IMG/VR virus record: IMGVR_UViG_3300022602_000038
Coordinates: 1-64,000 of that record
DNA from: a virus
DNA: 64,000 nt
Direction: 5' to 3' (one strand)
Shown: in pieces, positions 15,944 through 36,472 of the stretch
Layout of the letters: every line of letters starts with the position of its first letter
Position numbering within the stretch: the stretch's first letter is position 1
Notes under the pieces: generated by a model
The model's input: only the letters and a program-made list of their open reading frames with translations
The model's database searches: none
What the model was told of the DNA's origin: nothing
Made by a program: the position numbers and the translations under genes

Positions 15944-15951
15944 TATAAATA
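15944..15951 (+). promoter_or_regulatory. T4-type late promoter TATAAATA
   Basis: Exact consensus 8 nt before ATG 15960. Confidence 0.7.
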
Positions 15952-15959
15952 TATAACAC

Positions 15960-17807
15960 ATGGACATTAAAGCGTTACAAGGTATTTACACAAGCATGTT
16001 TACAGTTGAACGTGCTGCACCTAATGTAGTGCCTTTATATCTTACTGAAGCTTCCCCAGCTGCTCCTATTGCTTCTACATACATTTACACTGATAAACAA
16101 GTAGAAGAAATGATTAACAGTGTAAAGAGCGGTAAAGTAACAGTTTTAGATTTAGCTAAAAAAGTATCAAAAGATTGTGAAGATAACGACGCTTTAAAAA
16201 TAATACAGGGTATGTTTAACATTATACCCGTACAACCTGAATTAGTTAATTTTATTAATGATAAAATTGGAATTGATGTTGAAGCAAGTGTTATTGGTGG
16301 TAAGCACAGATTATTAGCTGTAGCACCTGAACTTGCTAGGTTGTTAAACAGATTGACTGTTAAGATAGTAAGCTTTCTTGATCCTGATGTAAAGACAATG
16401 GCTGTAGATGATTACGGTAACATTTATATCAGTCCAATATTCTCTCTTGATTTAACTGAAGAGGAATTTTATGGAGTGTTTGCTCACGAAGCGTTTCATA
16501 TAATTAATAAAACGTTTTTAAGAAAAGAATGGAGAGATCATACTCTATGGAACCTTGCTACTGATGCTGTAATGAATTGGTATTTGGCAGCAGATGGGTT
16601 TAAGTTACCTAAAGGTGGTATTATTCCTAATGTAGCCACAGGCGAATATACTTTCCCGTCTCCTATTAATGAAAAAATTAAAGTGTTAGATAGTAAAAAA
16701 GATATATTAAGTTGTGAAGATGTGTATGAACAGTTAGAAAAAATGAAAGAAAAAATAGGTGGTAACCCCCCCCCAGGTGGTGATGGCCCTCCAGGTGGTG
16801 ATGGTCCTCCAGGTGGTGACGGCCCCACTGTTCCAGGTAAAGGTGACGGCAAGCCAGGTAAAGGTGACGGTAAGGGTAATGGCGGTGAAGGCAATATTGA
16901 AGTTCATCCAGACGGTAAAGTTACTGTTGATGGTAAACCTGTTAAAGGTAAATTAACACCTGAAATAATTGATAAAATACTTGAGCAACTGGACAATAAA
17001 ACAGATAAACACTTAACCAAGGAACAAGCTAAGAGAGTTAATAAGGATGTAATAGAAGAATTTGACCCTGAGGAACAAAAAAGAAGAGAAAAAGAGATCG
17101 AAAATGATCTTAAACAAGGCGATATTGAAACTAGAGCATCCCGTACCTTTGGTAAAAGTGGCGGTAAAGTATTAGCTACAAGAAAAATGATCCAAAGAGC
17201 TATACCGCCTGATCCAATTAACTGGAGAGCTCTTATTAAAAGCTATTTGCAACAAGCAAACAGTAAATCATATACATGGGCTAAGCCTTCCCGTCGTGGC
17301 ATGGCAGCTGGTGTACCGTTGCCAGGTCGTGGAGCAACTGCACCTAACAAATTAGACGCAGTATTTGCAATAGACACTTCTGGTTCAATTGGTTCTGATC
17401 AACTTTCAGTATTTGTTCATTATGTTGAAAAAATTGCTAAACAAGCAGAACACTTAAATGTCTATGTTATATTGTGGCATCATAATGCTTATTATTGTAG
17501 TGCACCTCTTGCAACTAAAGGCACTCTTCATACCTTACTACAAAAAATAACAAAAAAAACACAACCAGGTGGTAATGATATAGGGGATATTAATAATTTA
17601 ATTATAGCAAAAAATATTAAACCAACTGTATGTATATATGTTACTGACGGACAAGAAGGAGAGGATACAGCAATAAAGTTAAGGCTTGCAAAATATAAGA
17701 AACTCTTCATTATAGTGAATAAATTCTTAGATTCAAATATGATAGAATACATTGAAAGAGTTCTTGGTTCACATGGAAGAGCTGTTTTTACACCTAAATT
17801 AGACTAA
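15960..17807 (+). CDS. Metallopeptidase-like (HExxH) plus VWA domain protein (DUF2201-like)
   Basis: TMAVD, AHEAFH, WNLATD..MN; PPGGDG linker; AIDTSGS MIDAS, GG, VTDG. Confidence 0.85.
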   Translation: MDIKALQGIYTSMFTVERAAPNVVPLYLTEASPAAPIASTYIYTDKQVEEMINSVKSGKVTVLDLAKKVSKDCEDNDALKIIQGMFNIIPVQPELVNFINDKIGIDVEASVIGGKHRLLAVAPELARLLNRLTVKIVSFLDPDVKTMAVDDYGNIYISPIFSLDLTEEEFYGVFAHEAFHIINKTFLRKEWRDHTLWNLATDAVMNWYLAADGFKLPKGGIIPNVATGEYTFPSPINEKIKVLDSKKDILSCEDVYEQLEKMKEKIGGNPPPGGDGPPGGDGPPGGDGPTVPGKGDGKPGKGDGKGNGGEGNIEVHPDGKVTVDGKPVKGKLTPEIIDKILEQLDNKTDKHLTKEQAKRVNKDVIEEFDPEEQKRREKEIENDLKQGDIETRASRTFGKSGGKVLATRKMIQRAIPPDPINWRALIKSYLQQANSKSYTWAKPSRRGMAAGVPLPGRGATAPNKLDAVFAIDTSGSIGSDQLSVFVHYVEKIAKQAEHLNVYVILWHHNAYYCSAPLATKGTLHTLLQKITKKTQPGGNDIGDINNLIIAKNIKPTVCIYVTDGQEGEDTAIKLRLAKYKKLFIIVNKFLDSNMIEYIERVLGSHGRAVFTPKLD

Positions 17808-17822
17808 ATATTGTATAATTAA

Positions 17823-19310
17823 ATGAGTACTAGTAAAATCGATACCACTTCAGGCTCTCAAATGCCTGACATTTATAAGCGTTTCGGTGGTTCTGCATCA
17901 AAAGCAGAGCCTTTGTCCCGTGCTGCTAACGATGTTAATTTACCAGTATGGTCAATGAAGAACATAATGTACCTATTAAACGGTGCATACAATGATAAAT
18001 CTCGTTCCTTTTTAGTACTCGGTGCAGCTGGTATCGGTAAGAGCGCTGTAATGAAACAATTTGCACAAACTGCTGCTAAAAAAGAAGGTAGAGTATATGT
18101 TAAATTTAACAACTTAGCCGGTTTACAGCGATCTGAAGCTATAAAAGACCCTAGTCAGTATTATGTATTTTTAGACTTACGTGCTGGTGAACTTAACCCA
18201 GAACAAGTACAAGGTATACCAGATGTAGATTACGGTAAACAACATGGTTATTTAAGGTTTTTACCGCCTGATTGGGTTAAGCTTGTATCTAATCCAAAAT
18301 TCAGCGGTATGTTATTTTTAGATGAACTTAATAGAAGTGATAAGAATATTCTTAATTCATTATTACAATTAAGTTTGGATAGAGAAATTAGTGGTCACAC
18401 ACTAAGCAAAAACGCTATGGTGTGTGCAGCAGCTAATTGGGGTGCAGAGTTTGAAGGCAACGTACAAGAGCTTGATACAGCACATATGCGTCGTTTTAAA
18501 GCAGGTGTATTAGTATTAAAACCTGAGGAATGGGCAGAATATGCTATGGAAATAGGCATTAGCAAATATATAATTGATTTTGCTATGTCTAACCCAAGCG
18601 ATAATATGTTTGGTAAGGGTAAACAAATAAATAAAGATATACCTATTAATCCTGCTTCGTTGGAGTTTGCTAGTAATTCTTTAAAAGAAGTTGAACGTCA
18701 ATATCACGATCATTGGACATCTAACACTCCTTTACCAGCAGGAGCAACAGGGGACATTTATCAAGATTTATCTGTAGCTTTAAGTGGGGACTTAGGTGAA
18801 GAGTGGGTTAATAAGTTTGTAGAGTGGTTAAGAATAGTGCATAAGTTTAACTGGAATGATATTGTTGGTAAAGCTAAAGAGGGCGCATTTAAAACCAAAT
18901 CAAAAGAGTTTGGAGCTTCTGAAAAGTTTGCTCTTACATCTTATATAACTGATCAAACCTATTCACGTTGGCTTCAAGCGCGGGAAAGTAAAAACCCAGC
19001 TGAAAAGCAAAAAGCCATAGACATGCTAAACATACAATTAGCTACAATACTTACAGGTGTAGATAAAGAACAGGCTTCTATGATTGCTAAAGTTATAAAG
19101 CATCAAATGTTAAAAGATACACCTAAAGAAATGAATGAGTTAGATGCAAATTTACTAGCAGCAGAACGTTGGACTGAATTTATTGTACCTATATTAAAAT
19201 CAGTTAAAGAAGAATACCCTAATGACTTTCAAGCGTTTCAAAAAGTATTTGCATCAATGAAATCAGCTAATGCAAATGCATTAGGAAGAGAAAAAGAAGA
19301 TAAAAATTAA
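17823..19310 (+). CDS. MoxR-like AAA+ ATPase
   Basis: Walker A GAAGIGKS, Walker B LFLDELNR, AAAN, RRF; adjacent to VWA gene. Confidence 0.85.
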   Translation: MSTSKIDTTSGSQMPDIYKRFGGSASKAEPLSRAANDVNLPVWSMKNIMYLLNGAYNDKSRSFLVLGAAGIGKSAVMKQFAQTAAKKEGRVYVKFNNLAGLQRSEAIKDPSQYYVFLDLRAGELNPEQVQGIPDVDYGKQHGYLRFLPPDWVKLVSNPKFSGMLFLDELNRSDKNILNSLLQLSLDREISGHTLSKNAMVCAAANWGAEFEGNVQELDTAHMRRFKAGVLVLKPEEWAEYAMEIGISKYIIDFAMSNPSDNMFGKGKQINKDIPINPASLEFASNSLKEVERQYHDHWTSNTPLPAGATGDIYQDLSVALSGDLGEEWVNKFVEWLRIVHKFNWNDIVGKAKEGAFKTKSKEFGASEKFALTSYITDQTYSRWLQARESKNPAEKQKAIDMLNIQLATILTGVDKEQASMIAKVIKHQMLKDTPKEMNELDANLLAAERWTEFIVPILKSVKEEYPNDFQAFQKVFASMKSANANALGREKEDKN

Positions 19311-20129: not shown

Positions 20130-20675
20130 GTGCTTACCTTTAAACAATTTACAGAAAATTGGACTAGTAAAACCCAAAAAATGAACGGGAAAAACTTATC
20201 CATATTTAATACTGCAAAGATTAATCCTGAAGCAATGTATTATAGGTTTTATTACGTAGACGAAACTCAAAAGTGGGTACCTAAGGCACACGGTTGGGAT
20301 ATTTATTCGGTTACAATTAAGGGGTCAGAAATTATAACGAGTGTTTTAAATTTTAATAAAGCCATTCTTAGCGGTATCACACCTTACTTCCTTTATGTAG
20401 AAAATTTAAGTATGTCAGAAATCGTATTTGTTAAAATAGCAAATGTACGGGGAATTATAAAAGGTTATATTTTTGTAGAAGCAGAAAAACTAGACAATAT
20501 ACCTAATATGGACACTTTTAAAGAACTTAGACTTAAATTACCTGAAGGATGTCCAGCAAAAGATATAGAACAAAACCTATATAAACACTTTATTCCTTTT
20601 GTACATAATAAAGTAAAGATAAAAGAAGTATATAGAAAGGGATCAGAAGAAGCTGGTATAGACATTGATATATGA
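20130..20675 (+). CDS. Single-module tagged protein (putative head-internal protein)
   Basis: TAAGTA at 20116; N-terminus MLTFKQFTE resembles the T4 capsid-targeting sequence; ends RKGSEEAGIDIDI. Confidence 0.75.
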   Translation: MLTFKQFTENWTSKTQKMNGKNLSIFNTAKINPEAMYYRFYYVDETQKWVPKAHGWDIYSVTIKGSEIITSVLNFNKAILSGITPYFLYVENLSMSEIVFVKIANVRGIIKGYIFVEAEKLDNIPNMDTFKELRLKLPEGCPAKDIEQNLYKHFIPFVHNKVKIKEVYRKGSEEAGIDIDI

Positions 20676-23600
20676 GAAACCAATATAAAACTCTATTTGA
20701 AGTTTACTCTGAAAATGTACATAGTGTGGCGCCTAGTAGTATTTTAGATAAAGTAGACGTGGACGTGGCACATATAAAAGCTAGAAAAGTTACCGATCCA
20801 TGGTCATCAGAGTTTATAAAGTACAAAGATTATTATAAAGAATATTTAATTAACAAAGCTAAAAAAGAAGGCTTCTTTGATAACCAAAGTAGAATTGATG
20901 TAGATAGTATGTGGAAAGAGTATAGTGAATTAACAGAAGAAAGAATGAGAGAGGAGCTTATTGATAATTTAGGAGATGAAGCTGTAGACTATGTAATAGA
21001 ACAAGATGAGTTAGATGAAGAAGTAGATGAAAATTTTTATCAAGACTTTAAAAGAAACTATTTACCTAAAATAAAAGCTGAATACGAAAAGAAGTATAAT
21101 GATATAATGGGGAAGCCAAGTAAAGAGCTTGGTATAGATATTGATATAGAAGAAAGCAAAGAGAAACCATCTGCAAGTAAAATAATGGCTGATGCACCGC
21201 CTCCATTAAAGATAATAAAAAATGTCAGTATAAACCCTAAAAAAACATATTATTTATTTCAACAACACAAGGATACAGACAAGGATAGCTATAGGTGGTA
21301 TTTTGTAACGTGGCAGTATGGTACGGATATAAATAGTGCTTTAGAACAATTGGAAAGAAAGAGAGATTTTTTATATAAAAGCGACACACTAAATGTGGTA
21401 CCGTTAGTAGAAGATTGTAATGATGTGTTTCTTTTTGTTTATTCTAATTCTAAAAAAGCGGATTCTATTAACTCCCCATCTTTATATATAAGTAAAGAGG
21501 TAATTAATAAAGTTTATGCAGTCCCTAACGACCCAAGAACACTCGATTCAAATTTAGTAAAGTGTATTGCAGAAATAAACAAAACAACTAACGATAAAAC
21601 AGGCATGGTAGCTCTTCAAGGGTTTAAGAGAAAAGTAGAGAAAGCATTACAAACTGAATTAAAAACAAAAAGTATACTTAAAAAGGGTTCTGAAGAAGCT
21701 GGTATAGAAATTGATATAGAAGAAGCTTACCAACATGTAAAGTCTGAATCGAGAGACCCATCCGATTCACCCGCTTTAGTTAAAGGATTACGCAGCAAGG
21801 TAGTAAGCCTGTGTGATAGTATATTAGGTATAAAAGATGCTAGAGTGGTTAATGATATTATAAGATACTTGGAAGAAGTGGTAGGTCCTAGTTTAAGTTA
21901 TGATGGCTATGCAGACGGGGTAATGCAGAAGTACGTAAGCAGATATATAAATAAAAATCTTAATTCGGGTAGGAAAGTTGATCAACATTTGTTAGATAAT
22001 ATGAATCTTGTGTATGGTTACTGGTCACCAAAAATTAAAAAAGCTATCGCTGATAGCTTTAAGCAAATGTATAAAGAATATAATGCATGGAAAAAAACAC
22101 AAGAAGTACTTAAAAAAGGGTCTGAAGAAGCTGGCATGGAGATTGATATAGAAGAAAGTAATAATGATTTTGATTACGAGTGGGAAACTTTAATAACAAG
22201 TTATCCAGATTCTAATATTTTTATTGAATGGCTATATAAGCATTTAATAGAAGAAGGCAGTATAGATGTAGATAATGATTTAGAGTGTGATATTAAACCT
22301 GGTTTTGAATCTATTCAAATATGGTATAATAGTAGAATAGAAAATGCTTCTTATGACGGTAATAATATTGAAGAAAATATAAAAAGTGAAATAAAGAAGC
22401 TTTATAATAGCCCGGAATACAAAAACTATAAAAAGATTTATAAAAAAAGACAAGACGTGCTTAAAAAAGGCTCTAAAGAAGCTGGTATAGACATTGATAT
22501 AGAAGAGGCTACTTCATGGGATGAATGGGAAATTAATTTTGATATTTTTAAACTTACAGATAAAATTAAAGACTGGAAATGTGTAAATGATTTTTATAAA
22601 TGGCTATATTTAAAGGTAGTTAATAATCCAGATTTTGATCAAGGGCATTGGGACATGTATCCAGAGGAACTTGATAATATAACTAAAAAACTTAATCACT
22701 ACTACCAACATGTATACTCTGAGAATATGTTTAATGTAGCGCCCTTACATATAAAGGATTATATTTATCAAAAGAGTGTTCAATTAGGTGGAACAACACA
22801 TGACGTTTATGTAAAAGTAAAAAATAAATTTCCAGAAGTTGCTAAAGATGCAGAAAAAGTTACAATAGCCCTTATTAAAAGATTTTACAATGAATTTAGA
22901 AAAACTAAAGAATATAAAAATTGTGTAAAAACCCAAGCAGTATACAAAAAAGGGTCTGAAGAAGCTGGTATAGACATTGATATAGAAGAAAACAATGAAC
23001 CTTATTCTGATTTAAATTCATCGTATCATATTTTTCCGTATTTTAAAGTTGTACATAATTGGAAAAATAAAGACGAGTTTACAGAATGGTTGTATAAAGA
23101 AATAGATATAGAGCCAGGTATTAATATAGACTCTAAAGCTGAAAATTGGACACACGCTCAAATGGTGGCTTGTTATATTGATGAACACTGCTACCTAACT
23201 CGTGATGATTACTATGAGGATACTACTGATGAGGATGAAGTTGATAGTTTAGCTTATGAAGATACTTTAAAATTGTTAAAGAAGTATTATAAAAAATTTA
23301 AAATATGGAAAAAAACACAAGACGTGCTTAAAAAAGGTTCTAAAGAAGCTGGCATGGAGATTGACATAGAAGAATCTAATAATAATAATATTCTATTAAA
23401 ACGTAGCAATAATGAACATGATTATGGGGATATATATAGTTTAGTTAAGCACTGGGAAGATGGAGATTTGTTTATAAAGTGGTTATCTGAACGAGTAGAT
23501 AACTGGCCAAGTCACAACAAAGATAATCCATTACAAGAATGGTGGGATAATACAGTTGATGAGTTTTCGAGACTAGATCCTAATCGTTATAACAGTAAAA

Positions 23601-23755
23601 AACGTACAGTTGAAGATAATATAGAATTAGCATTAACCTCTATAGAGTTCTCTTATGATGAGTTTGTTAATACTGATCATTATTTAAAGACAAAAGCTAC
23701 ACGAGATGTACTAAATAAAGGGTCAAAAGAAGCTGGAATAGAAATAGATATATGA
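20672..23755 (+). CDS. 7-module tag-linked polyprotein
   Basis: Leader MRNQYKTLFEVYSE; internal tags at 21110, 21680, 22112, 22463, 22946, 23330; terminal tag 23714. Confidence 0.85.
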   Translation: MRNQYKTLFEVYSENVHSVAPSSILDKVDVDVAHIKARKVTDPWSSEFIKYKDYYKEYLINKAKKEGFFDNQSRIDVDSMWKEYSELTEERMREELIDNLGDEAVDYVIEQDELDEEVDENFYQDFKRNYLPKIKAEYEKKYNDIMGKPSKELGIDIDIEESKEKPSASKIMADAPPPLKIIKNVSINPKKTYYLFQQHKDTDKDSYRWYFVTWQYGTDINSALEQLERKRDFLYKSDTLNVVPLVEDCNDVFLFVYSNSKKADSINSPSLYISKEVINKVYAVPNDPRTLDSNLVKCIAEINKTTNDKTGMVALQGFKRKVEKALQTELKTKSILKKGSEEAGIEIDIEEAYQHVKSESRDPSDSPALVKGLRSKVVSLCDSILGIKDARVVNDIIRYLEEVVGPSLSYDGYADGVMQKYVSRYINKNLNSGRKVDQHLLDNMNLVYGYWSPKIKKAIADSFKQMYKEYNAWKKTQEVLKKGSEEAGMEIDIEESNNDFDYEWETLITSYPDSNIFIEWLYKHLIEEGSIDVDNDLECDIKPGFESIQIWYNSRIENASYDGNNIEENIKSEIKKLYNSPEYKNYKKIYKKRQDVLKKGSKEAGIDIDIEEATSWDEWEINFDIFKLTDKIKDWKCVNDFYKWLYLKVVNNPDFDQGHWDMYPEELDNITKKLNHYYQHVYSENMFNVAPLHIKDYIYQKSVQLGGTTHDVYVKVKNKFPEVAKDAEKVTIALIKRFYNEFRKTKEYKNCVKTQAVYKKGSEEAGIDIDIEENNEPYSDLNSSYHIFPYFKVVHNWKNKDEFTEWLYKEIDIEPGINIDSKAENWTHAQMVACYIDEHCYLTRDDYYEDTTDEDEVDSLAYEDTLKLLKKYYKKFKIWKKTQDVLKKGSKEAGMEIDIEESNNNNILLKRSNNEHDYGDIYSLVKHWEDGDLFIKWLSERVDNWPSHNKDNPLQEWWDNTVDEFSRLDPNRYNSKKRTVEDNIELALTSIEFSYDEFVNTDHYLKTKATRDVLNKGSKEAGIEIDI

Positions 23756-26700
23756 AAAAATTAGATAAAAATATAGCTAAAAAATACAGTCAAATGTACG
23801 ATGAAGATACCTTTTCAAAAGTACCAGCAATACCTTATGATAAGAATTTAAAGTGTATTGAACTTATACGTACCTTTTGTAGAGGGGAGTATACTGTAGA
23901 TTTATCTGAAAAAACGTTGGGAGAACTAGTAGATGAGTTTTACGAATCATATGAACCAGGTGGAGAATTTGCAGAGTATGGGAACCCTTTTAATGAATTT
24001 AGCGAAGACTTTCCTACTAAAACAGAGTTTATTCAACATATTACAAATGGTCATGTAGTAAAAGGTATAAGAACAGAAGAGCAAGAGTTTTTAATGGCTA
24101 GAAAGGATCAAGAGCTACAAATGTATGAAGAGCTTGAACGACTAGAATCAGAAGAAGAATTGGAACCCGATCCTGAGTTTGAAATTATAAAGAATAAAAG
24201 AATAATTAGTATTAAAACAGCTCCTATCTTTAAAAAAGGATCAGAAGAAGCTGGTATGGAGATTGATATTGAAGAGGGGGTTAAGGAAGACTATAAAAAG
24301 TTCGATATTGAAATACCAAGTATAGGGGAGATAATTGATATTGATATGAAAGAGTTTGAGAAAATTTTTAAAAACACTCATAAAGACGAAATCGATTTTG
24401 CCCAGGTAGGTTGTGAAATAGTTAAAGATATAGATGTAAAAAATGAAATGTTGTATGTAATGCTAGGTAAACACGTATTTAATGAAGATACTTTGAGTTT
24501 TCTGAAAGACGAACAAATAACCTATACTCATAAACCTAAAATAAACACAGTATTTTATAGTCGGTCGCATAAAGGACCTATATTTGCTAGCCATTATTTT
24601 GATACAGGATTTAAAGGCGGTGGTATTGAATATTGGACATTAGTGCCTGATAAATCTCATTCACATTTGCCTTTAGTTACAGCTGTGCCTTTTAGTATTG
24701 GGGTAGATAATTGGGCTGAATATAAAAATTGGTTAGAAACTCAAAAAATATTTAAAAAAGGATCAGAAGAAGCTGGTATAGAGATTGATATAGAAGAAAG
24801 TAAAAAAACTAAAGACTTGTACAACACAACTGAAGTAATTAATAAAATAAAACAACGGTTTGGAACTTGTACTTATGCCTTCTGTAAATGGCTATACGAA
24901 GAAGATTTTGCTGATTTCGATTCAGATCTATCTCTTGAAGAAAATATACGAAGTATCTGGGAAAATATGGTTGAAAACGGTATAGATGGCGGTATGAGTA
25001 AAAGTGATTCTATAGAACAAGCTCAAAACTATCTTGATAGTAACATTGAAATGTTTGAAAATAGTAAAGCGTATAAAAATTGTTTAGAAATTCAAGCAGT
25101 ATACAAAAAAGGTTCTAAAGAAGCTGGTATGGAAATTGATATAGAAGAGAACGCTAAAGGCAAATCTAGTAAAAAACAAAGCTCTTTTTATTTAGATAAA
25201 AAAAGCGTGTTTGACCCGCTTCATCCGGAAGATCCAAGTAATTTATATAATATAATAAAACAAGAACTTGGTGATTTTACTGATACATTTTACAAATGGC
25301 TAAGTACAAATACAGTACGAACACATCTTGGGACATTTTTTTTTAATCCATATGAACATTTAGTATTTAATTTGAAGGATTTATGGGATGATCTTTTCAG
25401 TAAGGACTATATTGCTATTTGTGAAGACGGTATAGATAAAAAGGAAGCAGAAAAAATGTGCTTAAAAACAGCACTAAAAGACCTTGAGTCTATTTTTAAA
25501 CAATTTAGAAAAAGTAAAGAATATGAAATTTGTTTAAAAAAAATAATATCCAAGAAAACCGAACCAATATATAAAAAAGGTTCTGAAGAAGCTGGTATAG
25601 ACATTGATATAGAAGAAAATGCTAAAGGCAAATCTAGTAAAAAACAGAGCTTATCTGCTTTAGATAAAAAAAGTGTATTTGCTCCGAACGATCCGAAAGA
25701 TCCAAGTAATTTATATAATATAATAAAACAAGAACTTGGTGATTGTGCTTATACATTCTACAAATGGTTAGGCGCAAGTGCAATTCAAACTTATAGCGGT
25801 GTAACTGCTTGGTCTCCAGAAGAAACTTTTGAACAGAATTTGGAGGATTTATGGGATGATCTTTTTATAAGTGGTTATCTTTACACAGTTAAAGATGGTA
25901 CAGATGAAAAAACAGCAGAAAAAATATGTTTACAATCAGCATTAAAAGAACTTAGGTCTTGGTTTAGAGAGTTTAGAAAAAGTAAAGAATATAAAAATTA
26001 TGTAAAAACCCAAGCAGTATACAAAAAAGGGTCTAAAGAAGCTGGTATGGAAATTGATATAGAAGAAAATGCTAAAAGCAAATCTAGTAAAAAACAAATC
26101 TTAGCCGATTTAGAAAAAAAATTTAAGTTTATTGACCCGTATAATCCGGAAGACCCAATTAATTTATATAGTATATTACAACAAGAATTTGGTGCTTGTG
26201 CTGATTCATTTTTCAAAGGAATTGGTTGGCATTATTTAGACTCTTTTGAAGAGAATTTGGAGTACTTATGGTATGTAGCTTTTGTAGAGGACTACAATGA
26301 GGCACTTGAAAAAGGTATGGATGAAGAGGAAGCAAAAAAGAAGTGCTTTAAATTAGCACTGTATTTTCTTGAGATAGATTATTTTAAGAAATTTAGAGAA
26401 AGTAAAGAATATGAAATTTGTTTAAAAACCCAAGCAGTATTAAAGAAAGGCTCTAAAGAAGCTGGTATGGAGATTGATATAGAAGAAAATGCTGAAGGCA
26501 AAACTAGTAAAAAACAAATCTTAACCGATTTAGAAAAAAAATTTAAACTTGTTGACCCGATTTGGCCGGAAGATCCAATTAATTTATATAATATATTACG
26601 ACAAGAATTTGGTGCTTGTGCTGATTCATTTTTCAAAGGGATTAAAAAAATCAAAAACTATTGGGGGTATAGAGAACCCTCTGAAGATTTTGAAGAGAAT

Positions 26701-27318
26701 TTGTATTTTTTATGGAATATAGTTTTTATAGAAGACTATACTAAGGCCCTTATAAAAACAGAGCACTTAGGTACAAATGAAAAAGAAAAAGAGGAAATAC
26801 AAAAGAAATGCTTTAAATCAGCACTAAGAAATCTTGAGATAAACTATTTTAGTGAATTTAGAAAAAGTGAAATATATAAAAATTGTGTAAAAACCCAAGC
26901 AGTATACAAAAAAGGGTCTGAAGAAGCTGGTATGGAGATTGATATAGAAGAAAATGCTAAAGACTTCATGCCTGTAGGTGCTGGTGATACGTTTTATTTT
27001 ACTAAAAAATATATAGGTATTGAAAATAAAAACGAGATATTTGACTTTATAAAGTTTTTAGATACTTACATTAAACCTAAACAGCGTAAAACAGACGCTA
27101 ATACAGTTGATAGTATGTATGAGCAAATGACTTGGGATGCAGCTGAAAAGCTACCAAGCACTACTTCAAAAGGATATTATAGAGTACAAGATGAAGAACT
27201 AGCATTATGTCGTAAAAAAATTATACAACAGCTTTGGGAAAAGTATGAACTATGGCAAAAAGCGCAAGAAGTGCTTAAAAAAGGTTCCAAAGAAGCCGGG
27301 GTAGACATTGACATATAA
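23752..27318 (+). CDS. 8-module tag-linked polyprotein
   Basis: Internal tags at 24232, 24754, 25105, 25573, 26023, 26443, 26908; terminal tag 27277. Confidence 0.85.
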   Translation: MKKLDKNIAKKYSQMYDEDTFSKVPAIPYDKNLKCIELIRTFCRGEYTVDLSEKTLGELVDEFYESYEPGGEFAEYGNPFNEFSEDFPTKTEFIQHITNGHVVKGIRTEEQEFLMARKDQELQMYEELERLESEEELEPDPEFEIIKNKRIISIKTAPIFKKGSEEAGMEIDIEEGVKEDYKKFDIEIPSIGEIIDIDMKEFEKIFKNTHKDEIDFAQVGCEIVKDIDVKNEMLYVMLGKHVFNEDTLSFLKDEQITYTHKPKINTVFYSRSHKGPIFASHYFDTGFKGGGIEYWTLVPDKSHSHLPLVTAVPFSIGVDNWAEYKNWLETQKIFKKGSEEAGIEIDIEESKKTKDLYNTTEVINKIKQRFGTCTYAFCKWLYEEDFADFDSDLSLEENIRSIWENMVENGIDGGMSKSDSIEQAQNYLDSNIEMFENSKAYKNCLEIQAVYKKGSKEAGMEIDIEENAKGKSSKKQSSFYLDKKSVFDPLHPEDPSNLYNIIKQELGDFTDTFYKWLSTNTVRTHLGTFFFNPYEHLVFNLKDLWDDLFSKDYIAICEDGIDKKEAEKMCLKTALKDLESIFKQFRKSKEYEICLKKIISKKTEPIYKKGSEEAGIDIDIEENAKGKSSKKQSLSALDKKSVFAPNDPKDPSNLYNIIKQELGDCAYTFYKWLGASAIQTYSGVTAWSPEETFEQNLEDLWDDLFISGYLYTVKDGTDEKTAEKICLQSALKELRSWFREFRKSKEYKNYVKTQAVYKKGSKEAGMEIDIEENAKSKSSKKQILADLEKKFKFIDPYNPEDPINLYSILQQEFGACADSFFKGIGWHYLDSFEENLEYLWYVAFVEDYNEALEKGMDEEEAKKKCFKLALYFLEIDYFKKFRESKEYEICLKTQAVLKKGSKEAGMEIDIEENAEGKTSKKQILTDLEKKFKLVDPIWPEDPINLYNILRQEFGACADSFFKGIKKIKNYWGYREPSEDFEENLYFLWNIVFIEDYTKALIKTEHLGTNEKEKEEIQKKCFKSALRNLEINYFSEFRKSEIYKNCVKTQAVYKKGSEEAGMEIDIEENAKDFMPVGAGDTFYFTKKYIGIENKNEIFDFIKFLDTYIKPKQRKTDANTVDSMYEQMTWDAAEKLPSTTSKGYYRVQDEELALCRKKIIQQLWEKYELWQKAQEVLKKGSKEAGVDIDI

Positions 27319-27539
27319 TGTATTCATTCAACGAAGATAAAACGTATAAGGTTACTAGTATAGGATTTAATAAGATAGATGAAATAGCTATTAAAGCTAT
27401 GGTTAAGGGTATGGTTGATACTGGAGAGTATAATAGAACCTATATGCAAGAGGTTGTTATTGCCAATTACCCTAATGTTACTAGAGACAGAGCAGCTATT
27501 CTAGTATTAGAAGGTATGTATTTAGCTAGTAAAAACTAG
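27318..27539 (+). CDS. Hypothetical protein
   Basis: 73 aa ORF translationally coupled to upstream stop. Confidence 0.6.
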   Translation: MYSFNEDKTYKVTSIGFNKIDEIAIKAMVKGMVDTGEYNRTYMQEVVIANYPNVTRDRAAILVLEGMYLASKN

Positions 27540-27564
27540 TACTAGATTACATAAGTAATACAAT

Positions 27565-28911
27565 ATGAAGAATGATCAAGCTTTAAGGTTACTTGCTGAA
27601 CAGTATCAACAAGTACAGGTCAATGAAATTTTAATAGAAGGTTTCAACAGAGACCTTGAAGCTTTTGAAGCATATCTTATTAAAGAAGGCCTTTGGGACA
27701 CCATTAAACAGAAAGGTGCTGCTTTAGCATCTGGTGCAAAGAGCGCTTTAGTGCAGCCTTTAATTAAAGCTATCATGAATAAGATCGCTCAAAGCGATCC
27801 AGAAGGTTTTAAAAAGATTCAAGCAGCAGCTGCTTCTGGTGAAAGTGGTATACAACAATTATTAAATAGCCCTGAGGTTAAGCAACAACAGCAACAAATC
27901 AGTCAAGACGTTGCTGCTACAACTGAAAGTATTGATGATGGTTTATATAGCGAAGTGTTTGAAGAGGCAATCGGTTATTTAATTGAAGCTAGAGTACTAA
28001 GCAATGACCCTCGTAATGTTCGCCGTAGAGAGTTAGCTGCACAAAAGAGAGCTGCTTCTCAGCAACCAGCTTCAAATAAAGCTGCTCCAGGTAAACAACC
28101 TCCAGTGCTTAAGCCAAGTGCAAAACCAGCAGCTCCAGCAACTCCATCAGCTAAACCCACTACACCTACTACTGCTCAACCTCCAGCAGCACAAGGTGGT
28201 TTTATTCAAAAAGCTTATGCATGGATGAAACAACATCCTAAACTAACAGCCGCGGGTGGTTTGGCTTTAATGGCCGCACTTGGTGTCGCTACATTAGGTG
28301 CTGGTGGTATTGTTCCTTTAATTGCTTCAGTAGCACATGGTGCTGCAGCAGGTGCTGCAGGTGCTGGTGTTGTTGGTGGTGCTTTAAAGGGTGGTGCTAA
28401 TGTAGTAGGTCAAATGTCTAAAGGCGGTAAGGTAGACTGGAAACAGGCTGGTAAAGCTGCTTTACAAGGAGCTAAAGCTGGTGCTAAAGCTGGTGCTGTT
28501 GCCGGTGGTGTAGGTGCTGCATTAGGTGGACTTATTGCTGGTGGTGTTAAGATCGCACATGGATTGCAATCAGTTTTACAAGGCGGTAGTGGTACAGTAT
28601 CATTAAACGATTTACATCAAGCAACTCAATCTGCTCAACAAGTTGGTACACATAAGAGTGCTTTAAGTCAGGAAGTTGATCAGATTAATGCAGATTGTGA
28701 CGCTAAAGCAAATGCAATGCAATCATTAGGTCTTAAAAGCGCTACAATTTATGGCGATGGTAATGGAGCATTCCACATACAAGGTAATGACGGTATGGTT
28801 CACAACTTTAATGCCCAAGGTGTTGAAATTGGTAAATCCGCCGCTAGTGCAGCTCAGTCAGCTGCTACTTCAGCACCTAATGCTGCTGGAAAATTAGATA
28901 CAGGATTTTAA
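27565..28911 (+). CDS. Leader-bearing Ala/Gly-rich protein with hydrophobic segments (putative internal/ejected virion protein)
   Basis: TAAGTA 27552; leader MKNDQALRLLAEQYQQVQVNE; several L/I-x-E sites; GxxxG-rich hydrophobic region. Confidence 0.7.
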   Translation: MKNDQALRLLAEQYQQVQVNEILIEGFNRDLEAFEAYLIKEGLWDTIKQKGAALASGAKSALVQPLIKAIMNKIAQSDPEGFKKIQAAAASGESGIQQLLNSPEVKQQQQQISQDVAATTESIDDGLYSEVFEEAIGYLIEARVLSNDPRNVRRRELAAQKRAASQQPASNKAAPGKQPPVLKPSAKPAAPATPSAKPTTPTTAQPPAAQGGFIQKAYAWMKQHPKLTAAGGLALMAALGVATLGAGGIVPLIASVAHGAAAGAAGAGVVGGALKGGANVVGQMSKGGKVDWKQAGKAALQGAKAGAKAGAVAGGVGAALGGLIAGGVKIAHGLQSVLQGGSGTVSLNDLHQATQSAQQVGTHKSALSQEVDQINADCDAKANAMQSLGLKSATIYGDGNGAFHIQGNDGMVHNFNAQGVEIGKSAASAAQSAATSAPNAAGKLDTGF

Positions 28912-28922
28912 ATAAAAGTTAA

Positions 28923-29054
28923 ATGACACAAACAGTTATTGTATTTGGAGTAGTGATTGGGGCAGTTGTTTATAGTATCCGTAAAGCGTTTGTAAATAAA
29001 TCCAAATGCTGTACTTGTGGTAAATGTAAATGTAAAGACAAGTTAAAGAAATAA
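28923..29054 (+). CDS. Small Cys-rich membrane protein (FeoB-associated-like architecture)
   Basis: Not in track; MTQTVIVFGVVIGAVVYSIRKAFVNKSKCCTCGKCKCKDKLKK. Confidence 0.6.
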   Translation: MTQTVIVFGVVIGAVVYSIRKAFVNKSKCCTCGKCKCKDKLKK

Positions 29055-29090
29055 CTTGAACTTTTATTCTTGTGTACCATAATATGGTGT

Positions 29091-29393
29091 ATGAGAGCTT
29101 ATTCAGCCATCCCAGGTCTAATCACCCACAAAGTTTGGTTACATGATCCAATTGCTCCATCTGTTTATTTAAAAGAAAACGGATATAAGGAATGGTGGTT
29201 AAACAATTTATTGCACCGAGAAGATGGTCCAGCAATTGAGCATATTAACGGGGATAGGGAATACTATCTAAATGGTACACGACATAGAACTGATGGTCCA
29301 GCTATTATTTTTAAAAATAAGACCTATTTTGAGTACTGGGTTGACGGAAAACAGTTAACTGAACAAGAATTTAAACACAATTATCCTGTATAA
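29091..29393 (+). CDS. LHRxDGPA-repeat protein
   Basis: LHREDGPAIE, RHRTDGPAII; start moved to ATG 29091 after TTGAAC-N16-CATAAT. Confidence 0.75.
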   Translation: MRAYSAIPGLITHKVWLHDPIAPSVYLKENGYKEWWLNNLLHREDGPAIEHINGDREYYLNGTRHRTDGPAIIFKNKTYFEYWVDGKQLTEQEFKHNYPV

Positions 29394-29474
29394 AATCCCA
29401 ATTACACTTTATTATATCCGTTAATATGTATCTATACGTACTAACGCTCACTGTGGAATACTAGAAATACTAAT

Positions 29475-29663
29475 ATGAGACAAAGAATACTACAAGTAAC
29501 CAAAGAAGCTTTCAATAACATCTATGGTAATGCTTATCTAAAAGGCAAGTACGGAGATGAATGGGTTGAGGTAATGTTAAAAGACCTTGCAAGAGAGGGC
29601 ACGGTTGTTAAGTTCTTAGATGTTGAGAAAAAAGAAACTAAAAGAGAAGTAAATAAGCTATAA
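29475..29663 (+). CDS. Hypothetical protein, paralog of 38034..38189
   Basis: F...Y.N.YL..KY.D.W..V....L......F.D shared. Confidence 0.7.
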   Translation: MRQRILQVTKEAFNNIYGNAYLKGKYGDEWVEVMLKDLAREGTVVKFLDVEKKETKREVNKL

Positions 29664-29664
29664 C

Positions 29665-29862
29665 ATGAAAAAGAAATCCATTATTAAACAAACAGCTTCT
29701 TGGCTTGTGATGGTTCAAAAGAATTCAAGAACGCAAAGCCATTATGTTGAGTTGCCAACCTCTCTTGTAAACGAATTAGGTTGGACAAATGATGATGCTC
29801 TTATTTGGACTCCACAAGAGGGTGGTTCGTTTAAGGTATCCAAGGTAGAAAGAAAAAAGTGA
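29665..29862 (+). CDS. AbrB/MazE-like DNA-binding protein
   Basis: VELPTSLVNELGWTNDDALIW. Confidence 0.6.
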   Translation: MKKKSIIKQTASWLVMVQKNSRTQSHYVELPTSLVNELGWTNDDALIWTPQEGGSFKVSKVERKK

Positions 29863-30161
29863 AAGACTATCTTCGTTATTTAATTGATGAGGGATTTGCG
29901 GATATTAGGTACTGGTTTGATGAAAATGATAAAATAGAAGGACGTATATCCACTATTAAAGAGTATGAGCCATTATACCTTGAATCAGATGAAGAGGATT
30001 ATAAAGGAACTTTACTTTTGTGGCGGGATTATGGTAAATGCTATACCTATAAAACTACAAGAGAATTTTTTGTTAACTATGGTAAGAGGTGTTTAAATGA
30101 AAGTCAAGCTCTCTTACAATCAAATAAATGGATAAGAGAAATAAAAGAAGCATACCGTTAA
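29859..30161 (+). CDS. Hypothetical protein
   Basis: 100 aa ORF. Confidence 0.6.
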   Translation: MKDYLRYLIDEGFADIRYWFDENDKIEGRISTIKEYEPLYLESDEEDYKGTLLLWRDYGKCYTYKTTREFFVNYGKRCLNESQALLQSNKWIREIKEAYR

Positions 30162-30170
30162 ACCTATACT

Positions 30171-30302
30171 ATGAAGATAATAAAGCACTTAACATATCAG
30201 GAACCATTACCTTCAACTACTTCAGGCAAGATATGGTATTATGCTAAATGGTTATTGTTAGGAGTTATTATAGGTTTCCTCTTTGGGTGTATCTTTTTAT
30301 AA
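30171..30302 (+). CDS. Small C-terminally anchored membrane protein
   Basis: Not in track; MKIIKHLTYQEPLPSTTSGKIWYYAKWLLLGVIIGFLFGCIFL. Confidence 0.55.
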   Translation: MKIIKHLTYQEPLPSTTSGKIWYYAKWLLLGVIIGFLFGCIFL

Positions 30303-30346
30303 GCTATATAGATTGGATTCAACTAGTACTTCAGATAAGTAATAAG

Positions 30347-31816
30347 GTGCGCAACCAATACAAACTTTTAGCAGAAAAATACATTCAGATTAAAGAATGG
30401 GTAAACAAAGAAGATGAATACTTAGCAAATATTGATTTTGATAAATCACCTGAAAGCATTCAAAATAAAATTATTGATTTAGTGATAGAGCCTGAAACGA
30501 TTGAGAGTTTTAAAGTTGAGGATTACTGGGTAGATGATCATTTGCTATGTTACGGGGTTATCATAAACGATTTAAAGCTTAGTTTTTGGTGGCAAGACGA
30601 CCCTGAAGATACAGATGAAGCGGATGATCAACCACCTAAAAATTCAATGTATGTTGTGTTAGATAAAATGTGTAATAATGGTAATCTTCAATTAAAAGAC
30701 CACCCTAAATTACAAAAAGAGGTAGCAAATTTATTAAAAGTACATTTTATTAGAGATGATTCTCTTATAAAGAGCCGCTTTGAAAAAAAGAAAATCGATC
30801 CAATATATAAAAAAGGTTCTGAAGAAGCTGGTATAGAGATTGATATAGAAGAAGCTTACCAGCAGGTAATATCTGAAGAGAGGAATCCAGATGATCCACC
30901 TGCTTTAGTTAATTTTTACAACGGGGAATTAGTAGAATTATTAGGTAAAATACTAGGTATAAAAGATGCTAGAGAAGTTAATAATATTATAAAATTTTTG
31001 GAAGAGGTGGTAGGGCCTAGTCTAGGTTATCAGGACTATGCAGGCGCTGCAATGCAAAGGTACGTAAACGAATATATAGATAAAAATCTTAACGGTAAAG
31101 ATTTTTTGGATCCGCGTATATACGATTATATAAATATTAATTATAATTGGTCGTCAAAACCGCCAAAAATTAAAAAAGCTATCGCTGATAGCTTTAAGCA
31201 AATGTACAAAGAATATACTGTGTGGAAAAAAACACAAGAAGTACTTAAAAAGGGTTCTGAAGAAGCTGGTATAGAGATTGATATAGAAGAAGGTGTTGAA
31301 GAAGACTATAAAAAATTCGATATTGAAATACCAAGGGTAGGAGATATTGCTCAAGTTAATCCGGAAGAGTGGGATAAAATTTATAAAAACACTTTTAAAA
31401 ACAAAACTCATTATACGAAATTTGGGACATTAGTAGTTACAGATATAGATGTAAAAAATGAAATGTTATATGTAGTACTAGGTAAATATAAAAAACAGGA
31501 ATCTACTTTAAATTTTTTAAAAGACGAACAAATAACCTATGATCATAAACCTAAAATAAATACTATATTTTATAGCCGATTTTATAAAGTACCTATACTT
31601 GTTAATAGTTACTATAGTGTAACACAATTAGATGGTGGTGAAGCTATTGAATATTGGTTATTATGTCCCGATAAATCTCAACCGCACTTACCTTTAGCTA
31701 CCACTGTACCTTTTAGTGTCGGGGTAGATAATTGGTCTAAATATAAAAATTGGTTAAAAACTCAAAAAATACTTAAAAAGGGTTCTGAAGAAGCTGGTAT
31801 AGAGATTGACATATAA
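30347..31816 (+). CDS. 3-module tag-linked polyprotein
   Basis: Start reassigned to GTG 30347 (MRNQYKLLAEKYIQIKE) after TAAGTA 30336; tags at 30809, 31247, 31775. Confidence 0.85.
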   Translation: MRNQYKLLAEKYIQIKEWVNKEDEYLANIDFDKSPESIQNKIIDLVIEPETIESFKVEDYWVDDHLLCYGVIINDLKLSFWWQDDPEDTDEADDQPPKNSMYVVLDKMCNNGNLQLKDHPKLQKEVANLLKVHFIRDDSLIKSRFEKKKIDPIYKKGSEEAGIEIDIEEAYQQVISEERNPDDPPALVNFYNGELVELLGKILGIKDAREVNNIIKFLEEVVGPSLGYQDYAGAAMQRYVNEYIDKNLNGKDFLDPRIYDYININYNWSSKPPKIKKAIADSFKQMYKEYTVWKKTQEVLKKGSEEAGIEIDIEEGVEEDYKKFDIEIPRVGDIAQVNPEEWDKIYKNTFKNKTHYTKFGTLVVTDIDVKNEMLYVVLGKYKKQESTLNFLKDEQITYDHKPKINTIFYSRFYKVPILVNSYYSVTQLDGGEAIEYWLLCPDKSQPHLPLATTVPFSVGVDNWSKYKNWLKTQKILKKGSEEAGIEIDI

Positions 31817-32218: not shown

Positions 32219-32227
32219 AAAAATAAC

Positions 32228-33623: not shown

Positions 33624-34103
33624 ATGAGGAGTCAATATAAAGTTTTAGCAGAAGCTTATAATAGGGTACTTGAAACAAGTAAGCCTATTACAAAAGAAGA
33701 CACCTCTAATGAGTGGTACAATGATGCAAGAAAGCAGATAGATAGTTCCGACGGAGCCTACGGGTTTTCTTTCTTTAAAACAATAAAGGATTGGCCACAT
33801 CCAGATGAATTTATAAAGTTTTTATGTAAACACATATACGGTGTTAGTGTAGATTATTTTGAAATAGTTACGTATGGTATTGATAAATTCATTACTACGA
33901 TGTTTGGACATGAGGTAGACAGTATTGCAGGGGATATAAGAGATAAGAACCCGCATTTAAGTCATAAAGAGATAAATGATATTTCAGATAAATTAGCGGT
34001 AAAAAAACTAAAAGAATATTATAACCAATTTAAAACTTACCAAAAGGCTCAAGCAGTACTTAAAAAAGGTTCCGAAGAATCCGGAGTAGACATAGACATA
34101 TAA
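33624..34103 (+). CDS. Single-module protein with both leader and tag
   Basis: TAAGTA 33611; MRSQYKVLAEAYNRVLE ... KKGSEESGVDIDI. Confidence 0.85.
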   Translation: MRSQYKVLAEAYNRVLETSKPITKEDTSNEWYNDARKQIDSSDGAYGFSFFKTIKDWPHPDEFIKFLCKHIYGVSVDYFEIVTYGIDKFITTMFGHEVDSIAGDIRDKNPHLSHKEINDISDKLAVKKLKEYYNQFKTYQKAQAVLKKGSEESGVDIDI

Positions 34104-35251: not shown

Positions 35252-36472
35252 ATGAGAGATAGGACTACCATACTACTAGAAGAGGCATATGAAAAGGTTA
35301 AAGAAGCGGCTATACTACCGGATGAATCTAAAGTTGATAAAGTAATGGATATATTGAACAAAGCACAACAGTTAAGACAGCAAGGATATAGTGTAAAAAA
35401 AACAGAACAAAATGCAATAAAAGAGTTGGCACTTCTTAATATAACCATTAAGGATTTGGAAGCGCCTATAGGCGCCGGGATTGTATACAATCCCATCAAT
35501 TTTTATGATACAGGAAGAATAGTAATTAGTAGAGATTTATTTAAAAGGTACATAGACTTGCCCTTTAGTAAAAGTAAGGTCGAGTGTAAACATAGAGAGA
35601 AAGTAATGAGACGATTAATCGGTCACGAATATATTCATCAATTGCAACTTATACGTAAATTAAAAAGGATCCATTCATTAAATAAGCCTGCAGGCATCTA
35701 TGATAATGAAGAAAGGATCAATTCATTAAAAAAGCTTGCAGGCATCTATAATAATGAAGTACGGTATCATAGCCGCCATTTTGATAATAAAGACCCTAAG
35801 TTTTATTATAACAATTATAACGAAATAATGACCTATGCCTATGAAATGGCAAAGAAGATATACGATAAGTTGAATATAGATAAGTACAAAGCAAGGAACT
35901 TTACCAAGGATCAAATTTACAAAGTAGTACAAAGGTTTATGCAAGTAGATAGATTTGCTACAAACAAAATGAGTAAAGAAATTGTTCAGCACCTCACCCC
36001 AGATAATGTAAAACGGTACTACAAGTACATTTACGATTATGTAGGACAGTTGTATGATGGTATATTAAAAGAACCAAACAATAAGGTAAGGGATTCATTA
36101 AACGAAAAGGGTGTTATAGTTAGTGGAAGATTTTATGGTCAAACGATACAAGACTATGTAGAGAGGTTTTTACCTAAGCATTTTAAAGAAAAAAATAAAG
36201 TCAACAAAGAAGAATTATTAGACTTTGTAAAGTATATTCAAGATAATATCTATAAACATATACCAGTTACTCGTACTAAATTCTCCAGTAAAAATGTATT
36301 ACCTTTATTGTATCTAGCAAATAAGATTATACTAAGTAATCCTAATTTAACTTCAAATGCAGTATATAAACAAGTATTAGAGTTCCTTTATAAAGAGTAC
36401 ACCTACCATAAGAAGACACAAGCAGTACTTAAGAAGGGCTCTAAAGAAGCAGGCATTGATATAGATATATAA
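35252..36472 (+). CDS. Leader- and tag-bearing protein with zincin-like HExxH domain
   Basis: MRDRTTILLEEAYEKVKE; GHEYIHQLQ...Y....NEI..YAYE; ends KKGSKEAGIDIDI. Confidence 0.8.
   Translation: MRDRTTILLEEAYEKVKEAAILPDESKVDKVMDILNKAQQLRQQGYSVKKTEQNAIKELALLNITIKDLEAPIGAGIVYNPINFYDTGRIVISRDLFKRYIDLPFSKSKVECKHREKVMRRLIGHEYIHQLQLIRKLKRIHSLNKPAGIYDNEERINSLKKLAGIYNNEVRYHSRHFDNKDPKFYYNNYNEIMTYAYEMAKKIYDKLNIDKYKARNFTKDQIYKVVQRFMQVDRFATNKMSKEIVQHLTPDNVKRYYKYIYDYVGQLYDGILKEPNNKVRDSLNEKGVIVSGRFYGQTIQDYVERFLPKHFKEKNKVNKEELLDFVKYIQDNIYKHIPVTRTKFSSKNVLPLLYLANKIILSNPNLTSNAVYKQVLEFLYKEYTYHKKTQAVLKKGSKEAGIDIDI

Follow-up and report, generated by a model that had tools for sequence, protein, structure and literature searches.

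A translated tag repeat borders the variable modules of phage polyprotein genes and is a probable site of their recombination

In a stretch of 64,000 nucleotides from an uncultured T4-type phage of a lake metagenome (hereafter the window, the first 64 kb of the 140.7-kb IMG/VR virus record IMGVR_UViG_3300022602_000038, which is estimated to be 65% complete), several genes encode polyproteins built of modules that are each closed by a short translated repeat, the tag. Here we describe that relatives of these genes differ in the order of their modules, in the number of copies and in the gene to which a module belongs, and that the junctions between modules all lie at tags. The reading that accounts best for the data combines tag-to-tag recombination of modules with cleavage and packaging of the encoded chains, and we give it a probability of about 0.62. 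That the crossovers fall at the tag is indirectly supported by the comparative data, from which we infer the mechanism.

Results

Modules begin and end at the tag

Six genes on the + strand between 20.1 and 36.5 kb bear a 13- to 15-residue C-terminal tag, KKGS-[EK]-EAG-[IM]-[ED]-IDI (type 1). Twenty copies of the tag lie on the + strand between 20.6 and 36.5 kb, in addition to one degenerate copy at 21119-21154, and they recur every 350-570 nt. Each of the 14 internal copies closes with two Glu codons (KKGS-[EK]-EAG-[IM]-[ED]-IDI-EE), whereas in the six terminal copies the stop codon directly follows the last Ile and the Glu pair is absent. The internal 45-nt copies are 84-98% identical, with a mean of 91% for the tags. 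Modules, designated here by letters, were defined by splitting each gene at its tags, followed by BLASTP clustering, and fall into at least 17 groups at 40% identity. The tagged genes, named by their start positions, are listed below; some open with a leader that resembles a capsid targeting sequence (CTS).

20130..20675, + strand: single-module gene (module M) with terminal tag; the TGA stop shares bases with the ATG that starts the 20672 gene
20672..23755, + strand: polyprotein gene 1, E-N-B-I-L-C-F; CTS-like N-terminal leader, six full tags and a degenerate first tag
23752..27318, + strand: polyprotein gene 2, G-D-A-A-A-A-A-H; eight tags
30347..31816, + strand: polyprotein gene 3, O-B-D; probable GTG start at 30347, CTS-like leader, three tags
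33624..34103, + strand: single-module gene with leader and terminal tag; tag peptide retained, codons randomised
35252..36472, + strand: single-module gene with leader and terminal tag; tag peptide retained, codons randomised

Two modules occur twice in the window. A first-pass annotation of the sequence had claimed that the third module of the 20672 gene recurs as the second of the 30347 gene, and that the second module of the 23752 gene recurs there as the third. Both recurrences were confirmed. Compared without their tags, the B bodies (21725-22111 and 30854-31246) share 80 of 131 residues (61%, E 3e-54) and the D bodies (24277-24753 and 31292-31774) share 100 of 161 (62%, E 5e-74). The copies and the tags that border them are the following.

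21680..21724, + strand: 45-nt tag upstream of module B copy 1, 43/45 identical to 30809-30853; the homology starts here
21725..22156, + strand: module B copy 1, body and tag, in the 20672 gene
22112..22156, + strand: 45-nt tag closing module B copy 1; the homology with 31247-31291 ends here
24232..24276, + strand: 45-nt tag upstream of module D copy 1
24277..24798, + strand: module D copy 1, in the 23752 gene
24754..24798, + strand: 45-nt tag closing module D copy 1, internal form
30809..30853, + strand: 45-nt tag upstream of module B copy 2
30854..31291, + strand: module B copy 2, in the 30347 gene; synonymous divergence (dS) 0.43 and ratio of non-synonymous to synonymous divergence (dN/dS) 0.66 against copy 1
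31247..31291, + strand: 45-nt tag between module B copy 2 and module D copy 2
31292..31813, + strand: module D copy 2 with terminal tag, in the 30347 gene; dS 0.47 against copy 1
31775..31816, + strand: terminal tag of module D copy 2, TAA directly after

To locate the ends of the homology, the DNA was compared in 15-nt bins anchored on the tags. Identity in the flank is 1-7 of 15, rises to 12-15 of 15 from position -45, which is the first base of the upstream tag, and drops to 1-10 of 15 directly past the downstream tag. This pattern is seen at all four B and D boundaries, so the claim that homology starts and stops at the tag holds at the DNA level. The neighbours of the recurrent modules (N and O, I and D, G and B) are unrelated. 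The dS values of 0.43 and 0.47 are close to the divergence from a second (type-2) lineage of tagged genes described below, and they mark both pairs of copies as old rather than freshly shuffled.

Relatives differ by whole modules

Relatives were sought in 5.8 billion proteins and by an exhaustive profile-free search of 1.84 billion representatives, which yielded about 16 related proteins, all metagenomic. The family is rare; scans of IMG/VR with the B+D protein, the type-1 tag pattern, the module B alignment and the type-2 tag pattern returned no relative, and the 30347 protein had no match in the isolated-phage collection.

Twelve relatives were mapped, and each difference between genes corresponds to a whole module with tag borders. 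Compared with E-N-B-I-L-C-F in the window, P0018 reads E-N-B-L-C-F and P0009 reads E-B-L-C-F, while P0010 and P0011 are E-C-C-F and E-C-F. Compared with G-D-A5-H in the window, P0007 and P0021 read G-D-A-H and P0006 reads G-D-A-H-I. Module I, found within an E-type gene in the window, stands in P0006 at the end of a G-type gene, and the tag of H, terminal in the window, is internal there. P0008 and L010 share the map A-A-J-B-B-K, P0012 has A-A-A-A-J-B-B-K, and P0013 has a different leader followed by C and then an untagged domain. The first-pass annotation had proposed that modules are shuffled between polyprotein genes at the tag boundaries, and the related contigs agree with it: order, copy number and gene membership vary and module-level junctions all lie at tags, so that neither a fixed order nor off-tag module breakpoints were found.

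Two pairs of relatives that are 98.5-99% identical differ by a single module each, the indels being placed from the protein sequences. P0009 and P0018 differ at 7 of 712 residues and by one 177-residue indel that is exactly module N plus its tag; they lie on different contigs, where P0007 and P0021 are their matching neighbours. In the window, the repeat that flanks N is identical at 23 of 24 nt between 21131-21154 and 21701-21724. P0010 and P0011 differ at 6 of 412 residues and by one 128-residue indel; this consists of a second C in tandem with the first, and the two are 100% identical. Both one-module indels are, by all appearances, very recent.

One junction of another kind was seen in P0008, where residues 1-30, compared with P0012, show the leader joined straight into the body of an A module, off the tag; leader-module fusions therefore seem to arise by another route. 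The JGI name of P0012 ('inhibitor of KinA...') finds no support in its sequence.

Synonymous sites of the tags are alike

To assess whether the tag DNA itself could serve as the site of exchange, we compared the 16 tags of the polyprotein genes with four outliers that were grouped after inspection of their codons (one from each of the three single-module genes, plus the last tag of the 23752 gene). Codons for the same residue differ in 23% of comparisons among the 16 polyprotein tags, in 45% of those between polyprotein and outlier tags and in 58% of those among the outliers; random draws from the genes' own codon usage gave an expectation of 50%. Alanine in the tags is encoded by GCT in 17 of 19 cases against 45% in the background, and serine by TCN in 20 of 20 cases against 44%, AGY (56% of the background) never being used. 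Within the 30347 gene, any two of the three tags are separated by 1-2 of 39 nt, compared with 2-5 nt between them and the tags of the paralogous modules. As the outlier tags retain the peptide with randomised codons, the peptide itself seems to be under selection; the synonymous sites of the polyprotein tags are alike beyond what peptide selection accounts for, as predicted by exchange between tags. We regard the tag DNA as a probable recombination substrate.

Exchange extends into the module bodies

L009, a contig of another JGI metagenome record, repeats the O-B-D order seen in the 30347 gene. Over 2.6 kb it matches the window at about 99.9% identity apart from 63 differences within one patch.

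30968..31221, + strand: replaced patch inside module B copy 2, 254 nt, about 75% identity to L009

The left end of the patch lies in a conserved motif and its right end just ahead of the helix that precedes the tag. The L009 patch represents a third B allele, mosaic between the two paralogs of the window. A second block of divergence between L009 and the window begins at 32226. The earlier proposal that the 45-bp tag DNA acts as the crossover site that assembles cassettes in new orders is thus upheld in part: variable module order, junctions at tags and synonymous homogeneity speak for it, whereas exchange is not confined to tags.

Two tag dialects on orthologous modules

A second tag, K-G-T-Q-A-T-N-G-[ED]-W-D-M-x-G-L (type 2), was found in P0008, P0012, P0013, P0017 and L010. 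It is followed by two Glu only if another module follows, and its terminal copy ends at Leu. Both types have an alternating acidic and hydrophobic core (E-I-D-I versus E-W-D-M), and the type-1 and type-2 lineages have the same leader. Up to the pre-tag helix, identity between the sixth module of the 23752 gene and the second module of P0012 is about 93% (111/138, 80%, for the full aligned module), and the DNA of this window module matches L010 at 48 of 48 positions before the similarity decays. Likewise, module C of the window and that of P0013 have bodies that are about 85% identical (100/129, 78%, with the tag) and diverge directly after K-K-G. Tags that are alike within a genome on bodies that are orthologous across lineages imply either concerted evolution of the tags or their co-adaptation with a lineage-specific reader.

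Point mutation could shorten but not lengthen the chains

It had also been suggested that chain length could switch by point mutation, terminal ATA-TAA and internal ATA-GAA being one base apart. The one-base distance applies to four of the six terminal stops, which are TAA; each of the remaining two is a TGA that shares bases with the start ATG of the gene that follows. Read-through past the six terminal stops would add 0-38 residues and no module, so a point mutation could truncate a chain but not extend it, and no further module copies or silent modules were found elsewhere in the 140-kb record; elongation by point mutation is left without support. The sole terminal-to-internal change of a tag that we observed, that of H in P0006, was accompanied by a whole extra module and appears to have arisen by recombination. 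A similarity between the sequence after the stop at 36472 and the region upstream of 30248 was dismissed as a chance resemblance.

Probable cleavage sites, leader and candidate processing proteins

An AlphaFold2 model of module B, with a predicted local distance difference test score (pLDDT) of 74, is a helical bundle whose last helix continues through the pre-tag region to the two Lys, with the tag disordered, as would be expected of a cleavable linker. The internal junctions read I-E-E (type 1) or L-E-E (type 2), followed by a small residue. T4-type prohead proteases require Glu at P1 and a hydrophobic residue at P3, and those of giant phages also cut after Glu (PMC9026906). The internal [IL]-E-E matches this rule, and the chains are therefore probably cut in the head into single modules, each keeping its tag as a C-terminal signal; a cut ahead of the two Glu is also conceivable. 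As terminal tags are conserved with nothing downstream, the tag would also have to serve the mature module as a signal at its C-terminus.

The leader, M-R-x-Q-Y-K-x-L-x-E-x-Y, opens the 20672 gene, the 30347 gene and at least six of their neighbours, with L-x-E at positions 8-10. The 20130 gene has no leader and the 23752 gene has Lys at position 10. In the T4 CTS, residues 8 and 10 govern processing, and Asp at position 10 blocks it (PMC9026906).

Two genes upstream encode candidates for a processing activity.

15960..17807, + strand: zincin-like metallopeptidase (DUF2201_N) joined to a VWA domain; HExxH and the metal-ion-dependent adhesion site (MIDAS) both intact; candidate tag processor
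17823..19310, + strand: MoxR-type AAA+ ATPase; candidate only

The zincin-VWA protein, which lies directly upstream of the tagged genes, contains HEAFH, a Gly/Pro/Lys-rich spacer and a VWA domain with a D-T-S-G-S MIDAS. MoxR-type ATPases are the usual partners of VWA proteins. A T4 late-promoter-like octamer, TATAAATA, is located at 15944-15951; 12 such octamers were found in the window against 18.8 expected.

Modules lack recognisable families

No module matched Pfam or PHROGs above the cut-offs, and weak matches to CdiI, Ly49 and rIII-like proteins were treated as noise. The model of module B had no fold match in the PDB, that of module D was unusable (pLDDT 37), and the ESM Atlas gave no usable lead for the modules. 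Profile comparison links only C, J and P, to which a looser BLAST clustering adds I; other similarity across families is mostly in the pre-tag helix. The dN/dS values between paralogous and orthologous modules are 0.45-1.1, one adjacent A pair reaching 1.1. Such values are high for phage genes and would be compatible with proteins engaged in an arms race. A precursor of the type that gives ribosomally synthesized and post-translationally modified peptides was rejected, the modules being too large and at least one predicted to fold.

The locus and its surroundings

Between 20 and 36.5 kb, the phage has a variable locus whose small proteins belong to no recognised family. The large terminase of the phage belongs to the T4 superfamily, with 36% identity to those of Sinorhizobium phages phiN3 and phiM12; a head-closure gene and collagen-like tail fibres are also present in the window, the tail genes being sited further along the record. 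Overlaps of the ATGA/TAATG kind (20669-20675, 23749-23755 and 27313-27319) link the 20130 gene to the 20672 gene, the latter to the 23752 gene, and the 23752 gene to a 74-codon open reading frame at 27317-27541, which suggests translational coupling along the row of tagged genes. At 27565-28911, a leader-bearing protein of 448 residues is rich in Ala, Gly, Gln and Pro and has long hydrophobic Gly/Ala stretches, with a GC fraction of 0.39 that exceeds its surroundings; it may be a head protein of a membrane-active or scaffold-like kind. A leaderless gene of 201 residues at 39236-39841 ends in a degenerate tag-like tail, ...E-T-G-I-T-I-D-I. Genes for tryptophan-halogenase-like flavoenzymes lie at 13336-14805 in the window, at 5065-6693 in L010 and at 97-103 kb of the record, and one such gene adjoins the tagged-gene locus in both tag lineages.

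Discussion

Recombination at the tag and its alternatives

We propose the following sequence of events. A chain comprises three to eight proteins, each a module of 100-175 residues that ends in a conserved helix and then a disordered, acidic 15-residue tag. The 45-nt tags would serve as short direct repeats between which phage homologous recombination makes unequal crossovers and gene conversions, so that each event at a tag deletes, duplicates or moves at least one whole module, and the gene would stay readable because all tags share the same frame. In the head, a protease would then cut the chains at [IL]-E-E into single modules. The module map, the positions of the junctions, the recent one-module indels and the homogeneous synonymous sites are observed, while a causal role of tag homology, the cleavage of the chains with the enzyme responsible, and the packaging of the products are our inference. 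An extended version gives the tag a dual purpose, as a lineage-specific C-terminal address read by a phage factor and as the in-frame recombination site of an integron-like system that reassorts head-packaged, fast-evolving effector modules without breaking the frame; this version is offered tentatively, and we consider it rather improbable as a whole.

Several observations weigh against tag-to-tag recombination with cleavage. Judged by the L009 patch and by similar bodies that carry different tags, the tags are not the sole sites of exchange. Tags are no more alike within genes than between them (4.63 versus 4.47 differences, permutation p 0.66), and local homogenisation of tags within each gene was accordingly rejected. 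Exact runs common to tags have a median of 16.5 nt and a maximum of 56 nt, mostly 10-40 nt, and since they are short the crossover frequency may be low. A purifying filter that favours in-frame linker junctions would yield the same junction pattern, and the variants seen in relatives come from metagenome assemblies, which are prone to misjoins at repeats. The conservation of terminal tags points to a role beyond marking a cleavage site. Finally, a portal, a prohead protease and a major capsid protein were missing, no Peptidase_S77, Gp23 or Portal_T4 match being found on the 140-kb record, which is itself about 65% complete.

The purifying filter deserves a closer look. It would let illegitimate recombination or slippage occur anywhere, with only the linker junctions surviving, and would ascribe the similarity of the tags to peptide constraint and shared descent. 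The outlier tags, which keep the peptide on randomised codons, the short exact runs and the lack of overall homogenisation within genes all fit this explanation. We nevertheless regard it as unlikely, for synonymous differences among polyprotein tags are half of the random expectation, the two recent indels are exactly in register with a repeat on both sides, the tandem C copies are 100% identical as unequal crossover predicts, and at least 16 illegitimate events confined to about 10% of the sequence would demand very strong filtering. Much less probable still is that assemblers joined or collapsed contigs at the tags and thereby created apparent module orders. All relatives are metagenome contigs and the repeats recur every 350-570 nt, which speaks for such an artefact, but the window paralogs are just 61-62% identical and hence cannot be assembly duplicates, the O-B-D order was reproduced in a different JGI metagenome record (L009), and P0009 and P0018 occur on different contigs beside matching neighbours. 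The three polyproteins of the window are also letter-identical on a 27,033-nt contig, which may or may not be a separate assembly. Most shared tag runs are 10-40 nt, which typical reads and large assembler k-mers exceed.

Two further alternatives concern the fate of the chains. Uncleaved chains, in which tags are linkers or binding peptides of multidomain proteins and the variation is ordinary expansion and contraction of tandem domains, would fit the finding of no protease gene on the 140-kb record and the conservation of terminal tags without anything downstream to be cut off. This is a doubtful reading in our view: the same modules occur as free-standing single genes with the same terminal tag (33624, 35252 and P0016), the Glu pair is found only before a following module (14 internal versus six terminal tags, plus the relatives, in both tag types), and the junction fits the rule of the Glu-specific T4-type prohead protease. 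Alternatively, the chains could be processed by the zincin-VWA protein with the MoxR ATPase instead of a prohead protease; an acidic tag residue would be bound at the metal site of the VWA domain and the chain cut beside it by the zincin domain, possibly after the last Ile and ahead of the first Glu, which would give all products the same end. Behind the late-promoter-like octamer, tightly spaced genes on one strand encode the peptidase and then the ATPase, with two small genes, the first tagged gene and two polyprotein genes next in the row, the HExxH and MIDAS motifs are intact, and terminal tags end exactly ahead of the Glu pair, the simplest reading of which is that mature C-termini are identical. 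Both this enzyme pair and the proposed binding and cut are improbable to our mind, as the octamer is not enriched in the window, isolated phages hold only remote relatives of the peptidase, none known to bear tags, and within 10 kb on L010, which has type-2 tags, no such peptidase is seen.

If tag-to-tag recombination is true, the locus is a natural frame-preserving cassette system for proteins, in which one short translated repeat sets both the cut or address point of a polyprotein and the rearrangement point of its gene. Modular shuffling, known from intergenic elements and internal protein loci, would be extended from whole genes to domains within genes, and this would explain how the repertoire and the amount of small, fast-evolving proteins, which are probably carried into the host, can change quickly. 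The two dialects on near-identical bodies provide a direct handle on the factor that reads the tag, and tag and leader together could be natural parts with which to load several cargos into T4-type heads from one gene.

Comparison with known systems

No description of this polyprotein system was found in the literature searched, but parts of it resemble known arrangements. In multi-core precursor peptides of the cyanobactin PatE type, variable cassettes lie between recognition sequences that are conserved at the nucleotide level, and their number and identity vary by strain. PatE-type cores are modified peptides of 6-10 residues, whereas the modules here have 100-175 residues and at least one is a predicted helical bundle. 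Like the polyvalent proteins, which hold 2-15 domains (Iyer et al. 2017, PMC5512222), the chains unite many unrelated domains, here three to eight modules, in one phage polypeptide; for polyvalent proteins, delivery together with the DNA and proteolytic release have been proposed (PMC5512222). Unlike them, the tagged chains contain none of the domains catalogued for polyvalent proteins, no Pfam domain in any module and no embedded peptidase, the only peptidase being a separate upstream gene, and they have a uniform repeated inter-domain tag, which polyvalent proteins lack.

The internal protein (IP) loci of T-even phages and their capsid targeting sequence are reportedly treated by Repoila et al. 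in 1994 and by Mullaney and Black. Several features are shared with these loci: a short N-terminal leader of about 10 residues with hydrophobic residues at positions 7-8 and Glu at position 10, a gene content that varies among close relatives, and conserved short border sequences that are proposed to confine the shuffling. In both cases, a T4-type phage has a hyperplastic locus of unrelated small proteins (PMC3012670, PMC2839356, PMC9026906, PMC12373910). By contrast, the units here are fused in frame into polyproteins of three to eight modules, their border is a coding 15-residue C-terminal tag and not a promoter-like intergenic element, and PHROGs and Pfam give no similarity of any module to IPI, IPII, IPIII or Alt. 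The likeness is drawn from gene sequences.

The closest parallel for the rearrangements is the promoter-early stem-loop (PeSL), a short conserved element that flanks ORFan cassettes in T4-type phages and recombines (Arbiol et al. 2010, PMC2839356; PMC4122927). PeSLs give rise to indels between near-identical phages and form mini-circles, and PeSL-like elements have been noted at T-even IP loci (PMC2839356). Here too, variable cassettes are accompanied by short conserved direct repeats, the indels between near-identical relatives end, at the protein level, in repeats (P0009/P0018 and P0010/P0011), and the phage's own recombination machinery is presumed to act. The repeat described here differs in being translated in frame within genes, whereas a PeSL is a non-coding regulatory element between open reading frames; its cassettes are protein modules. 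The PeSL case includes demonstrated mini-circles, while ours is built on sequence comparison. Altogether, the tagged genes are a coding-sequence version of the known T4-type cassette shuffling, set within a polyprotein system.

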